Positions 31,993 to 35,419 of a DNA stretch of 64,000 nucleotides are shown here, piece after piece (within the stretch, counting starts at the first letter, position 1; every line of letters starts with the position of its first letter). Position numbers and translations under genes: made by a program. The notes below the pieces were generated by a model. It saw only the letters and a program-made list of their open reading frames with translations, did not search any database and had not been told where the DNA came from. The DNA is from Candidatus Bathyarchaeia archaeon (GTDB lineage Archaea > Thermoproteota > Bathyarchaeia > Bathyarchaeales > DTEX01), in contig JAWAZE010000002.1 of assembly GCA_038817885.1 (NCBI GenBank), forward strand, positions 13,862 to 77,861, given 5' to 3'.

Positions 31993-34026
31993 ATGCTGAT
32001 CTCGGAGATAATATTAGAAAACTTTATGTCATATGAGTATGCTAGGATACCCCTTAAGCCGGGTGTCAACGTTATTTGCGGGCCTAATGGCGCTGGTAAG
32101 TCGTCAATCATGCTGGGGGTGTCTGTCGCTCTAGGTCAATCTTATACCGAGCGCTCTAAGAAGCTCTGCGACCTAATAAGGTGGGGGAAGGATGTTGGGC
32201 GTGTAACACTAGTATTAAATAACTCTAAGGTTAAAGGTAAGCGCCCTGTCCCAAGAATCAATAAGGATCAGATTTACTTGACGAGGGTTTTAAGGCGTGA
32301 TGGTAAATACTGGTTTGAGATCGACAATGCCGCGGCGAGTAAGGCGGAGGTATTAAGGCTTCTATCGCACTTTAAGGTTGACCCTGAAAACATGCTGATA
32401 ATAATGCACCAGGACATGATCGAACAGTTTATTCTACTCTCACCGCAAGAGAAGCTTAGTCTCGTCGAATCGGCTGTCGGTTTAGAGACATACCGCAGAA
32501 ACGTTCTTGAGGCTCAGAGTAAGCTAAGCCACATAGTGAGCCAAGAAGAGTCTCTTAAAAAGATGCTCGAGTCCGTTGAACAGACCCTTAACTATTGGCG
32601 TGAGCAATATGATCGATATCAAGAGAAGAAGCAGCTTATCCTGAAGAAACGCTTTTTAGAACGCGAGTTAGCCTGGGCTGAGGTCATTAGAAAGGAAGAT
32701 GGGGCTGAAAGACTGCGGAGGGATCTTGAGGCTAAAAGGATGGAAATAAACACTCTTGAATCCACCATAAAAGAATTAGAAGATAGGGCAGCCTCACTTA
32801 AGGGAGAGGTCGCAGATCTTAAGAGGAAGAGGCAAAATCTTTTGGAGGAGATAATCTCCCTTGAGAGGGAGAGAGCCAAATATAGGGCCGACATATTGAG
32901 AAGCGGTGAGATGCTGAGCGGCCTAGAAAAATTCCTTGTTGATGGGGAGAGGAGCTTCATAAACCTCATAAAAAATCTTCAAGGAATTGATGTGAACCCG
33001 AACCCCGATTCAACACATGTTGTGGAGATGAATCCCGTAAAGGCTGTGGAGGACCTTAAAAACTGGTTTTCTGAGCTCAAATCTAAAATCGGCGAGATGA
33101 GGGACATAGCTGAGATAAATGATATAAAACTTGCCGATGTTGAGGTTAAGCTCCTAGACCTGAAGGATGAGATGCGTAGAATTGAGGGGAGGATTGATGA
33201 GTTAACTGATGCGCTTATTGATAACAGAGTTAACTCAGCCATCACCAACTATAGAAGAGACAGATTACTGAGCGAGATAGAGATTTTAAACAAGAATCTA
33301 GATCTCTTGCTCTCCGATCTTAATGAAGCCATTAAGAGGGCGGAGGAGAAGGGTGCGCGCATAGCTACCACACGAAGCCCAAGCACGATCCTAGAAGAGA
33401 TTAGGGTTATAGATGGGCGGTTGTCGATGATGACGGATATTTCAGAGGATGTTGAGAGAATGTACGAATCTTACTCTAAACTCTACTTTGAGCTGAAGGA
33501 GAAGGCTAGAATTGCCGCCGAGAATAGAGAAAAGACTCTGGAGGAGATTAGGGTTCGTATGGAGAACTGGAAGAAAGTTATCAAGGACCTATTGGAGAGC
33601 GTTAACAATGAGTATCAAAATATTCTTTCCACGATTTCTGGCTCAGGCTTTATCCGCCTAACCAATATAGATCATATTGAGGAGACTGGCATAGAAATTC
33701 ATGTGGGGTTTAAGGGCTCACAGCCAACACCATTAAACATTTATTCACAGAGCGGCGGTGAGAGGAGCGCGGCTACAATGGCCTTTCTACTCGCCCTCCA
33801 AAAGCACATAAAATCCCCCTTCAGGGCTATAGATGAATATGATGTGCATATGGATCCGAGGAACCGAGAGGCGTTCGCTAACCTCCTTGTGTCAATAGTC
33901 GGGAATGAGGGCTCACAGTACCTTATAATAACACCTAACCAGGTCTTCTTTAAAGAAAAAGGTGTTCATGTTATAGTAGTCCAGAACGTTGAGGGTAAAT
34001 CACTTATAAGGGAGGTTGCCCAGTGA
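31993..34026 (+). CDS. Short SMC-family ATPase with Smc5/Smc6-like head signature
   Basis: 677 aa. N-terminal [11 protein letters not shown]...[12 protein letters not shown] (Walker A), about 340 aa of heptad-rich coiled coil, then C-terminal [41 protein letters not shown]...SQYLIITP (signature and Walker B/D-loop). Confidence 0.8.
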   Translation: [677 protein letters not shown]

Positions 34027-34889
34027 CGGTGACATCACAAGGTGGCGAGGGATCTAAGAGAAGTCTCAGGTCTGCCCGTGAGGATCTCCTTCGAATAATT
34101 AACTTATGTAGGTCTGTTGAGCTTAAGGGTTTAGATCCATATCTCGTTGATGTTGATGATCTCATCAAAGTGATTAGAGAGCACCTTCCCATCTGGAAAG
34201 ATTCTGAAGATTTATGCTTGGATGCTGAAGCCCTAAACCAAATAGCATCAGTGGTTAAAATGCAGAGTGAGTGGGTTAAGAAGAGAGCTACAAGACTTTA
34301 TCGGGATCCCTTCCTAATAGAGGAGAAGATCCGAAGTCTACCAGTAGATAAGATGGCTGAGATACTTCTTGAGGTATGGCGTCCCATAATTGAGCTCGAA
34401 CAGCTCACAACAAAAAGCTTCTATGGAGCATTAAAGTATTGGAGCATTCTCCTACCTCTAAACGAGAGGTGGAAGAGAACTGATTATATTAAGGCTGACT
34501 TACAGATGATGCGGATGGAGGAGGCAATTAGGGAAGGGGTTCTATCAGGCGAGTCGTTCACAACGGATTTAGGGAGGATGTGGATTGAGCTAAGGAACCT
34601 TTCCTCAAAATGTGGGAGGGTTCGGTACTGGGACTTTATTGGCTCAGACACTTATGAGGAGACTATCAAAAGAGCTTATCTGACCAGCTTCCTCATAACC
34701 TATGGCTACGCTAGGCTTGAAATAGACTTTCTTGAAGACGAAATATTCATACTGCCCAATGAGAAGCCCACCCCACCCTCTGAGGGAGAAGTTATATCCT
34801 TCCCGATAACTATAAGTTTCGAAGAGTGGAGGAGATGGAGAGAGGGGCGAGAAGCCGGGAGAGAAAAGCATATTATACTGCAAGAATGA
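34023..34889 (+). CDS. ScpA-like kleisin candidate
   Basis: 288 aa. GTG start overlaps the SMC stop (GTGA). The N-terminal GLDPYLVDVDDLIKVIREHL...AEALNQIASVVKMQSEWV resembles the ScpA N-terminal helical domain. The C-terminal ETIKRAYLTSFLITYGYARLEIDFLEDEIFILP resembles the ScpA C-terminal winged helix. Confidence 0.55.
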   Translation: MTVTSQGGEGSKRSLRSAREDLLRIINLCRSVELKGLDPYLVDVDDLIKVIREHLPIWKDSEDLCLDAEALNQIASVVKMQSEWVKKRATRLYRDPFLIEEKIRSLPVDKMAEILLEVWRPIIELEQLTTKSFYGALKYWSILLPLNERWKRTDYIKADLQMMRMEEAIREGVLSGESFTTDLGRMWIELRNLSSKCGRVRYWDFIGSDTYEETIKRAYLTSFLITYGYARLEIDFLEDEIFILPNEKPTPPSEGEVISFPITISFEEWRRWREGREAGREKHIILQE

Positions 34890-35419
34890 GGAAGGCTGCA
34901 CAGCTACTCTTCTATAAAAGACACTCTATTCCAGGCGCGAAAGGTTGGGAACTTAAAAAGAAGGTAGGCTCAGATTACCCGAGACTCATAAACCTCTTAA
35001 ACGAGTACCTTGTAAAGATAGGGCTCACAATTAAAACTGTCTTTGAGGGGGAGACTAATCCGCCAGAGAACCCCTCAATTGAGCAGTATGATGGGGCAAG
35101 GTTCTATGTCACTTTAAAAGATGAGGTAAATGTTGAAGATGCTAAGATGATGGGATGGCGTATAGATGACCTAGCGGCGCTGTGTGCTTCAATAGCATTT
35201 ATAATCTCTAGAGGCGGGAAGGTTCCGAGAAAAGAACTTGAAGATTTATTAAGAGCTAAGGTTCCGGAGTGGCGTGTTGAGACAAGCATCAACAGGTTTA
35301 CGAGGGCGGGCTATTTAATTGAGGATGAGAGCGGAATGATGTATATAGGCTGGAGAACAAGGGCCGAAGTCGACCAAAAGAGATTAATAGACCTATTACT
35401 CGAAGCCGAAAGCAAATAA
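34886..35419 (+). CDS. ScpB/KITE-like tandem winged-helix protein candidate
   Basis: ATG at 34886 overlaps the upstream stop (ATGA). Two WH-like halves: AAQLLFYKRHSIPGAKGWELKKKVG...LVKIGLTIKTVF and LAALCASIAFIISRGGKVPRKELEDLL...FTRAGYLIEDESGMMYIGWRT. Confidence 0.5.
   Translation: MRKAAQLLFYKRHSIPGAKGWELKKKVGSDYPRLINLLNEYLVKIGLTIKTVFEGETNPPENPSIEQYDGARFYVTLKDEVNVEDAKMMGWRIDDLAALCASIAFIISRGGKVPRKELEDLLRAKVPEWRVETSINRFTRAGYLIEDESGMMYIGWRTRAEVDQKRLIDLLLEAESK

Follow-up and report, generated by a model that had tools for sequence, protein, structure and literature searches.

A Bathyarchaeia SMC5/6-related operon with a short, apparently hingeless SMC: a candidate ATP-gated DNA clamp

Introduction

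Can an SMC complex related to eukaryotic Smc5/6 be built around an SMC protein that has no hinge? This question is raised by three adjacent genes in a 64,000-nucleotide stretch of DNA from a Candidatus Bathyarchaeia archaeon (GenBank assembly GCA_038817885.1, contig JAWAZE010000002.1, positions 13,862 to 77,861 of the forward strand). We refer to this whole stretch as the window, and all coordinates below are window coordinates unless another locus is named. The three genes encode a putative SMC ATPase, a putative kleisin and a putative KITE protein:

31993-34026, + strand: gene 1, SMC5/6-related SMC ATPase, predicted short hingeless form, 677 aa
34023-34889, + strand: gene 2, probable Nse4-like kleisin (288 aa from GTG 34023; 286 aa from GTG 34029)
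34835-35419, + strand: gene 3, probable Nse1/Nse3-like KITE with a tandem winged helix (194 aa from ATG 34835)

Smc5/6 is the least understood of the eukaryotic SMC complexes, and its archaeal relatives have so far been known from phylogenies alone. A first-pass annotation of the window, made from the sequence, had described the trio as a miniaturized SMC operon and had raised the possibility of an archaeal relative of Smc5/6. We consider it likely that the trio is an archaeal SMC5/6-related operon with a short, hingeless SMC, and that its products act as an ATP-gated DNA clamp. The kinship with Smc5/6 is borne out by the matches of head, kleisin and KITE and by published orthologs. The absence of a hinge emerges from profile searches, structure prediction and conservation, and the clamp is proposed by homology.

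Membership in a published archaeal class

The first-pass annotation had asked whether the trio falls inside a known family, and it does. Yoshinaga & Inagaki 2021 (PMC8665677) described 80 homologs under the name "SMC5/6-related aSMC"; most come from TACK archaea, Bathyarchaeota among them. van Hooff, Raas, Tromer & Eme (bioRxiv 10.1101/2024.01.07.573240; 2024, v2 2025) described a second operon in TACK and Asgard archaea, which consists of an SMC5/6-related SMC, an Nse4-related kleisin and an Nse1/3-related kite. Their Supplementary Table 3 includes many Bathyarchaeia with adjacent Nse4-related and Nse1/3-related genes, and Bathyarchaeota E29_bin60 (SOJC01000029.1_1/_2/_3) serves there as a worked example of the trio. 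We assign the window trio to this class with high confidence, because SOJC01000029.1, from the same phylum, is a full-length ortholog with the same gene order. The E29_bin60 proteins measure 680, 272 and 184 aa and are 52%, 48% and 52% identical to the window SMC, kleisin and kite, respectively. The window locus combines the features of the archaeal complex, namely an Smc5/6-like head, an adjacent Nse4-related kleisin, an Nse1/Nse3-related kite and the clustering of their genes.

The arrangement is also conserved. A scan of GTDB species-representative genomes returned at least 572 loci that encode a relative, of which we analyzed the best 80. The SMC-kleisin-kite order, whose conservation the first-pass annotation had proposed to examine, is kept in 73-75 of these 80. 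Among the loci without the full trio, four stop at a contig edge, and three (L031, L049 and L053) have room downstream.

All 80 loci come from Bathyarchaeia, except for one contig labeled as a bacterium. This contig (DATKLC010000037.1, Candidatus Krumholzibacteriaceae bacterium) carries a full Bathyarchaeia-type trio at 48-54% identity and is probably a mis-binned archaeal contig.

An Smc5/6-like head

The head of the gene 1 product carries the ATPase motifs at the following positions:

32080-32106, + strand: Walker A/P-loop GPNGAGKSS, residues 30-38, invariant in 60 homologs
33751-33855, + strand: ABC signature SGGERS (residues 587-592) through Walker B/D-loop (610-621), with invariant residues

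The split ABC head is complete. Across the 60 homologs, Walker A (G30-S38), Q140, the signature (S587-S592) and the Walker B/D-loop (D614-D621) are invariant, and the full set of Walker A, Q-loop, signature, Walker B, D-loop and H-loop is invariant or nearly so. With all catalytic motifs invariant, the gene 1 product is predicted to be an active ATPase.

Several comparisons support an Smc5/6-like affinity for this head. Pfam SMC_N matches residues 3-664 (9.5e-34). A sequence search of the PDB places Smc5 at the top (yeast 7e-29, human 1e-26), with Smc6 at 6e-26 and the Pyrococcus yayanosii Smc head at 3e-26, whereas Rad50 reaches only ~1e-8. When the C-terminal head is searched alone, human SMC5 comes first (2.4e-19). 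The likeness of the C-terminal head string to Smc5 and Smc6, which had been noticed by eye, holds at the level of single residues: in the alignment to human SMC5 (QSGGERS..PFRVVDE..GMDP..SQYFFITP), the signature-Walker B stretch aligns with SMC5 QSGGERS...PFRVVDEINQGMD. Foldseek with the AlphaFold2 (AF2) model of gene 1 puts Smc6 and Smc5 chains at the top, alongside a Pyrococcus Smc structure that comprises head, coiled coil and joint (5xei). Thus, the sequence and fold comparisons suggested for the head in the first pass both rank Smc5/Smc6 best.

The same affinity appears beyond the PDB. In a full HMMER scan of 1.84 billion representative proteins, an archaeal family came first (mostly 530-685 aa), followed by full-length matches of ~1000-1160 aa. 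Thirteen long matches beyond the archaeal family were looked up and nine of them are named; eight of the nine are eukaryotic, of which five bear the name Smc5 or Smc6, and the ninth comes from Thorarchaeota (1126 aa). No canonical SMC is found among the nine named of the 13. Gene 1 is also matched by NCBIfam models of prokaryotic SMC, ASRP and Rad50, in each case with a score far under the model's own cut-off.

Nse4-like and Nse1/Nse3-like partners

Gene 2 had been described as a ScpA-like kleisin. The profile match that bears on this lies at its C terminus:

34641-34838, + strand: C-terminal winged helix of gene 2, residues 207-272, Pfam Nse4_C

Nse4_C matches the gene 2 product over these residues (E=0.012) and is matched in 50 of 58 aligned kleisin homologs (best 1.6e-5). 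ScpA, by contrast, is matched in Pfam/NCBIfam neither by the gene 2 product nor by any of the 58 homologs. A single-sequence PDB search with the kleisin returned no match; the family profile alone reached Nse4, weakly, its top three matches being yeast Nse4 and human NSMCE4/EID3, at the C-terminal winged helix (E 0.05-0.09). The kleisin assignment therefore stands and the ScpA label does not, and sequence comparison supports a kleisin of Nse4 type.

For gene 3, the expectation was a tandem winged-helix protein resembling ScpB, MukE or Nse1-Nse3. The AF2 model of its product, with a predicted local distance difference test score (pLDDT) of 80, indeed contains two winged-helix units in tandem. 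Foldseek matches this model best to MAGE-G1/NSE1 (5hvq; 7e-5, 2e-4), then to Nse1-Nse3-Nse4 (7dg2) and MAGEA4, with JetB and MukE as weaker matches; ScpB structures are absent from the top 50. ScpB is likewise matched in Pfam/NCBIfam by neither the gene 3 product nor any of 53 homologs. A MAGE domain is weakly matched (E ~0.05) in 4 of these 53, and PDB searches with the KITE protein, by single sequence and by profile, gave chance-level matches only. The model thus upholds the tandem winged helix and its Nse1/Nse3 likeness but not the likeness to ScpB, and it supports a KITE closest to Nse3 (MAGE)/Nse1.

A short arm without hinge or hook

Canonical hinge SMCs carry a globular hinge at the apex of ~50 nm arms, with ~300-350 residues per strand. 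The gene 1 product is organized differently between its two head halves:

32485-32985, + strand: predicted N-terminal arm helix, residues 165-331 (AF2 pLDDT ~85-91; heptad periodicity 12.9x background)
32986-33033, + strand: predicted apex loop, residues 332-347, in place of hinge or hook (AF2 coil, pLDDT <50)
33034-33633, + strand: predicted C-terminal arm, residues 348-547, with joint-like breaks at 454-462 and 480-485 (AF2 secondary structure)

The AF2 model, built on a 60-sequence alignment, has a mean pLDDT of 74, with arms at ~85-91. Its helices span residues 165-331, 348-453, 463-479 and 486-547, and the loop at 332-347 is 16 residues long. The arm strands of 167 and ~200 residues fold into an intramolecular hairpin of ~165 residues, or ~24 nm. 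Hydrophobic residues recur with a 3.5-residue periodicity that is 7-13x background in the arms versus 2x in the head. A Pfam scan found no SMC_hinge match in the gene 1 product, and mid-protein it has no CxxC. On two counts, then, the protein departs from a canonical SMC: it lacks a hinge domain, and its arm falls far under ~50 nm.

These results agree with the earlier description of a 677-aa mini-SMC with full heads and neither SMC hinge nor CxxC hook. That description had also placed a single break near the middle of the protein; the AF2 loop at 332-347 does lie inside the segment named, but the further breaks at 454-462 and 480-485 show that it is not the only one. These two breaks look like an SMC "joint" in the model.

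Conservation across 116 homologs follows the same architecture. It is very high in the heads, in the neck (165-235) and in the joint-proximal C-terminal arm (450-547), and it collapses over ~240-420; the distal N-terminal arm is variable, whereas its neck part is strongly conserved. The apex is unconserved, indel-rich and variable in length, and is without Cys across homologs. As judged from these alignments, the conserved neck and joint fit a kleisin docking site on the neck. The gene 1 product is therefore presented as a functional-looking SMC head and neck with a short arm that carries no hinge or hook.

Short, hook and hinge forms of one family

A family survey on 50%-identity representatives recovered three kinds of SMC. 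Proteins from Culexarchaeia and Conexivisphaerales are among the short forms, which measure 548-685 aa and have neither hinge nor CxxC. Hook forms of ~1016-1047 aa, long paralogs of the window SMC, fall into three clusters, P0375 (RLI38935.1-type, 1047 aa), P0380 (1028 aa) and P0396 (1016 aa); two of the three have members named Bathyarchaeota, and their heads are 36-42% identical to the window SMC. In all three, the motif PQI[RK]C[DE][KR]CGS is conserved exactly at mid-protein; these proteins thus combine a zinc hook of Rad50/ASRP kind with an Smc5/6-type head. Hinge forms comprise P0449 (835 aa), which has a Pfam SMC_hinge, and P0420 (982 aa), whose central region is homologous to the P0449 hinge (E 6.5e-11).

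A rough neighbor-joining tree of the heads (91 sequences, 301 columns, 300 bootstraps) unites the hook forms in a clade (99%) nested within the short forms, with the hook forms placed outside in 0% of replicates. The short+hook group takes in P0420 in 76% of replicates and is recovered by itself in 46%. Because the relatives P0449 and P0420 keep a true SMC hinge, the short form looks like the product of hinge loss. The tree suggests that this loss was followed, in one sub-lineage, by re-extension of the arms and gain of a hook. We advance, tentatively and at somewhat under even odds, that the short form is truly hingeless and predominant in the closest representatives (Bathyarchaeia, Culexarchaeia and Conexivisphaerales), and that the apex of this family has been swapped between a hinge, nothing and a Rad50-like hook.

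Since the class is already known, the remaining new point is the hingeless short arm, together with the diversity of hinge, hook and loop, which is unmentioned in the literature searched. The available parts of the main texts and supplements of the two papers that we searched mention neither a missing hinge nor half-length arms. In both studies (PMC8665677; 10.1101/2024.01.07.573240), coiled coils were stripped before tree building. Literature searches for archaeal Smc5/6-like complexes returned no hingeless, structural or experimental work beyond these two evolutionary papers.

A predicted ATP-gated DNA clamp

How might such a complex act on DNA? We propose that the three genes, conserved as a trio and preceded by a conserved promoter-like element, are transcribed as a single operon from a promoter immediately upstream of gene 1. 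Their products would form a complex in which an SMC ATPase of homodimer type is joined by a kleisin like Nse4 and a KITE like Nse1/Nse3. By homology to the Smc5/6 DNA-clamp structures, Smc-ScpAB and MukBEF, the likely assembly is 2 SMC : 1 kleisin : 2 KITE. The two SMC heads would engage upon ATP binding. The kleisin would bind one SMC at its conserved neck, through N-terminal helices, and the other at its cap, through the Nse4_C-type winged helix at the C terminus; a KITE dimer would rest midway along the kleisin. The engaged heads would hold DNA between their top surface and the kleisin/KITE module until ATP hydrolysis released or reset the clamp. In chromosome maintenance or repair, the complex probably works as an ATP-gated clamp or tether on DNA. 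Because its arms have no closure at the apex, it probably acts neither as a hinge-closed ring nor as a long-range loop extruder. The complete miniaturized SMC-kleisin-KITE ring envisaged in the first pass is doubtful as a closed ring for the same reason.

It is useful to contrast this complex with known systems. The eukaryotic Smc5/6-Nse1-Nse3-Nse4 core offers the closest solved structures for the window head, the C-terminal winged helix of the kleisin and the KITE. However, eukaryotes have Smc5 and Smc6 where the window has one SMC gene (homodimer), and Nse1 and Nse3 where it has one KITE gene without a RING domain. The window SMC also has no hinge and an arm of ~24 nm rather than one of full length, and genes for Nse2, Nse5 or Nse6 of the eukaryotic holocomplex are absent from the window operon. 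The DNA-clamping head/kleisin/KITE module common to both is likely the working part. Smc-ScpAB, MukBEF and Wadjet JetABC follow the same SMC + kleisin + KITE operon logic, but their SMCs are hinge-dimerized and ~1100-1500 aa long, unlike the 677-aa window SMC; and unlike Wadjet, the window trio has no JetD-type nuclease. Short Lamassu LmuB (~600 aa, arms ~20 nm; PMC12663957), Rad50 and ASRP/ClsN are comparable to the window SMC in size and arm length and provide precedent for coiled-coil shortening in evolution. These proteins, however, belong to the CxxC-hook lineage and have Mre11/SbcD-like or LmuC partners, whereas the window SMC comes from the hinge-SMC lineage and is partnered by a kleisin and a KITE.

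Several observations weigh against the reading as an Smc5/6-like, hingeless clamp. In bit scores, little separates the PDB matches to Smc5/6 (104 and 94) from that to the Pyrococcus Smc head (95). The head region is poorly modeled by AF2, with residues 30-67 at pLDDT <50, and a dimer interface at the apex or between arms would be compatible with the monomer model. The N-terminal domain of the kleisin has no detectable match to the N-terminal domains of Nse4 or ScpA, and the link from the KITE to Nse1/3 draws on predicted structure, TM-scores of 0.38-0.45 and weak sequence matches. Stoichiometry, kleisin binding and DNA clamping are all carried over by analogy; for the bridging of neck and cap by the kleisin, the conserved neck and the Nse4_C-type winged helix are the sole supporting points. 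In 3 of the 80 loci (L031, L049 and L053), the short SMC has no adjoining kleisin or kite, also by hidden Markov model (HMM) search. Finally, the neighbor-joining tree has no canonical-SMC or Rad50 outgroup and its support for the short-form clade is 46-76%, so that it is indicative only.

The clamp proposal may be relevant in several ways. First, the Bathyarchaeia version is a compact set of 677 + 288 + 194 aa, with intact motifs, a conserved neck and a hingeless SMC. Should it assemble in the predicted way, it would amount to a naturally occurring "head module only" version of an SMC-kleisin-KITE machine, of a size suited to crystallography or cryo-EM, and a minimal natural complex for structural work. 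Second, if the reading is true, the complex would test whether head/kleisin/KITE DNA clamping works without a hinge-closed ring, which bears on models of loop extrusion and DNA entrapment. The head-kleisin-KITE clamp would then be the conserved working core of the Smc5/6 lineage, and the apex dimerization module would be dispensable and interchangeable in a kleisin-KITE SMC complex. Finally, hinge, hook and loop variants within one family form a useful evolutionary series and, if true, would make the textbook division into "hinge SMCs" and "CxxC SMCs" less sharp.

Alternative explanations

The alternative that survives best, an unlikely one in our view, is that the trio is an anti-plasmid or anti-virus SMC defense module of Wadjet or Lamassu kind, either without a nuclease or with its nuclease encoded elsewhere. 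Two PADLOC models match gene 1, mad3 (1.9e-34) and LmuB (3.5e-24, full length), although such SMC-superfamily matches are expected from common ABC heads. LmuB is similar in its size and short arms, Wadjet likewise works with a kleisin and a KITE, and the fold matches of our KITE include JetB; moreover, eukaryotic Smc5/6 restricts viral DNA (PMC9458440). Yet genes 2 and 3 match no PADLOC model, be it JetA, JetB or LmuC, and in the window no nuclease or other effector gene adjoins the trio. The chromosomal position is also stable, with the order kept in 73-75 of 80 species-level genomes, mre11-rad50 neighbors in close relatives and at least 572 GTDB loci, a distribution typical of a core gene set rather than of a patchy defense island. 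Membership in Wadjet or Lamassu was rejected for want of partner or effector matches.

Far less probable is that the operon encodes a reduced condensin-type Smc-ScpA-ScpB, the canonical prokaryotic chromosome-folding machine, as the subunit labels of the first-pass annotation would imply. The SMC-kleisin-kite order does equal that of Smc-ScpAB operons, the top PDB matches of gene 1 include the Pyrococcus Smc head, and SMC_prok_A is the best prokaryotic NCBIfam profile (1.2e-53), but its coverage is partial and its score far below cut-off. The partner genes point elsewhere: the 58 kleisin and 53 KITE homologs give zero ScpA/ScpB matches, against 50 of 58 for Nse4_C, and the KITE fold is nearest to Nse3/Nse1. 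Named long matches in the top 150 of the full-database search are mainly eukaryotic, with no canonical SMC among those looked up. Furthermore, E29_bin60 holds a separate canonical SMC-kleisin-ScpB-like operon (SOJC01000109.1; 10.1101/2024.01.07.573240) in addition to the ortholog of the window trio. The Smc-ScpAB reading is thus largely refuted.

Slightly weaker still, and barely credible, is a hook-type SMC-related protein of the Rad50/ASRP kind (coalescin ClsN, Sph) followed by two unrelated genes: NCBIfam ASRP does align end to end (residues 19-647 to model 10-589 of 593, 7e-26), size and short arm are similar and Rad50 models also match, but the ASRP score is 91 bits against a 300-bit cut-off, the Rad50 models fall far below theirs, ASRPs characteristically have a zinc hook whereas the gene 1 product has no CxxC, the published phylogeny sets ASRP apart from SMC5/6-related aSMC with full support, Rad50 PDB matches are 20 orders of magnitude weaker than those to Smc5/6, and the downstream genes are kleisin-like and KITE-like and co-conserved with the SMC gene. 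ASRP/coalescin membership is refuted by the score under cut-off and the missing hook.

Gene starts and promoter

The three genes are tightly packed on the + strand, with GTGA at 34023-34026 at the junction of genes 1 and 2 and ATGA at 34886-34889 inside the overlap of genes 2 and 3, both as the first-pass annotation had reported. A Shine-Dalgarno box, GGGAGGT, lies at 34010-34016, 5' of gene 2. Translation of gene 2 could begin at GTG 34023 or at GTG 34029, and public gene calls show both.

The start of gene 3 differs from that first proposed. The list of open reading frames gives three candidate starts on the + strand (34826, 34835 and 34886), all with the end at 35419. The start at 34886, which would use the ATGA and had been preferred, yields 177 aa. 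The true start is most likely ATG 34835 (MERGARS..., 194 aa), because a conserved N-terminal segment, RKxYYAxK[IM][KR][KR]A, is encoded 5' of the Met at 34886, and because the residue matching this Met is I or V in many homologs. Public gene calls in two Bathyarchaeia metagenome-assembled genomes (GCA_038860625.1 and GCA_038846195.1) give 677, 288 or 286, and 194 aa for the three products. With this start, the overlap of genes 2 and 3 would be ~55 nt and not the 4-nt ATGA.

At 34826-34889, ~55-64 nt are read in two frames, as the end of gene 2 and as the beginning of gene 3. The corresponding genes of E29_bin60 share just the 4 nt of an ATGA. In the lineage of the window, the kleisin has therefore gained an extended tail.

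Upstream of gene 1 lies a further conserved element:

31950-31987, + strand: promoter-like region 5' of gene 1, conserved blocks in an 8-locus alignment

In this alignment of the window with 7 related Bathyarchaeia loci, the blocks are invariant or nearly so and their flanks are divergent. The blocks are the TATA-like CCTTAAAT at 31950-31957, TCATTA at 31968-31973 and a Shine-Dalgarno-like box, GAGAGGG, at 31981-31987. Together, CCTTAAAT/TCATTA/GAGAGG looks like an archaeal promoter followed by a ribosome-binding site.

Genomic neighborhood

A mre11-rad50 pair, divergent from the SMC operon, is encoded upstream:

25626-28954, - strand: mre11-rad50 pair (translations; Pfam on public calls)
27710-28954, - strand: mre11 (translations)
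25626-27713, - strand: rad50, 695 aa, CPLC hook (translations)

The first-pass annotation had placed the trio about 3 kb from this pair. The pair is indeed present, but its adjacency is confined to close relatives: a divergent mre11-rad50 upstream of the SMC gene is kept in just the 9 closest of the 80 loci (at least 65% identity). The adjacency is weak evidence for a functional link, because it is kept in these nine only and because a molybdopterin oxidoreductase gene and two tautomerase genes intervene.

This intervening block, at ~29087-31821 (7087-9821 of L081), consists of the oxidoreductase gene flanked by two small genes of the 4-oxalocrotonate tautomerase family. An oxidoreductase homolog likewise stands between mre11 and the SMC gene in L003, whereas nothing separates the divergent mre11 and SMC genes in L001 and L002. 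The block looks like an insertion. The mre11 and rad50 genes themselves overlap by 4 nt. Window Rad50, at 695 aa, compares with 872-895 positions in the NCBIfam Rad50 models; its arms are therefore short too.

No second open reading frame of SMC size occurs within the 64-kb window. Downstream of the trio, from 36637-41385 onward, the window encodes NikR, a DtxR-type regulator, FeoA, FeoB, HypD, HypC and HypF, a metal homeostasis and hydrogenase maturation cluster unrelated to the SMC operon. At L031, one of the loci with a lone short SMC gene, the downstream gene is convergent (8061-8765, - strand); by eye, its 234-aa product shows a GDY...ERK motif like that of ERCC4/XPF and, at the C terminus, a segment resembling a helix-hairpin-helix.

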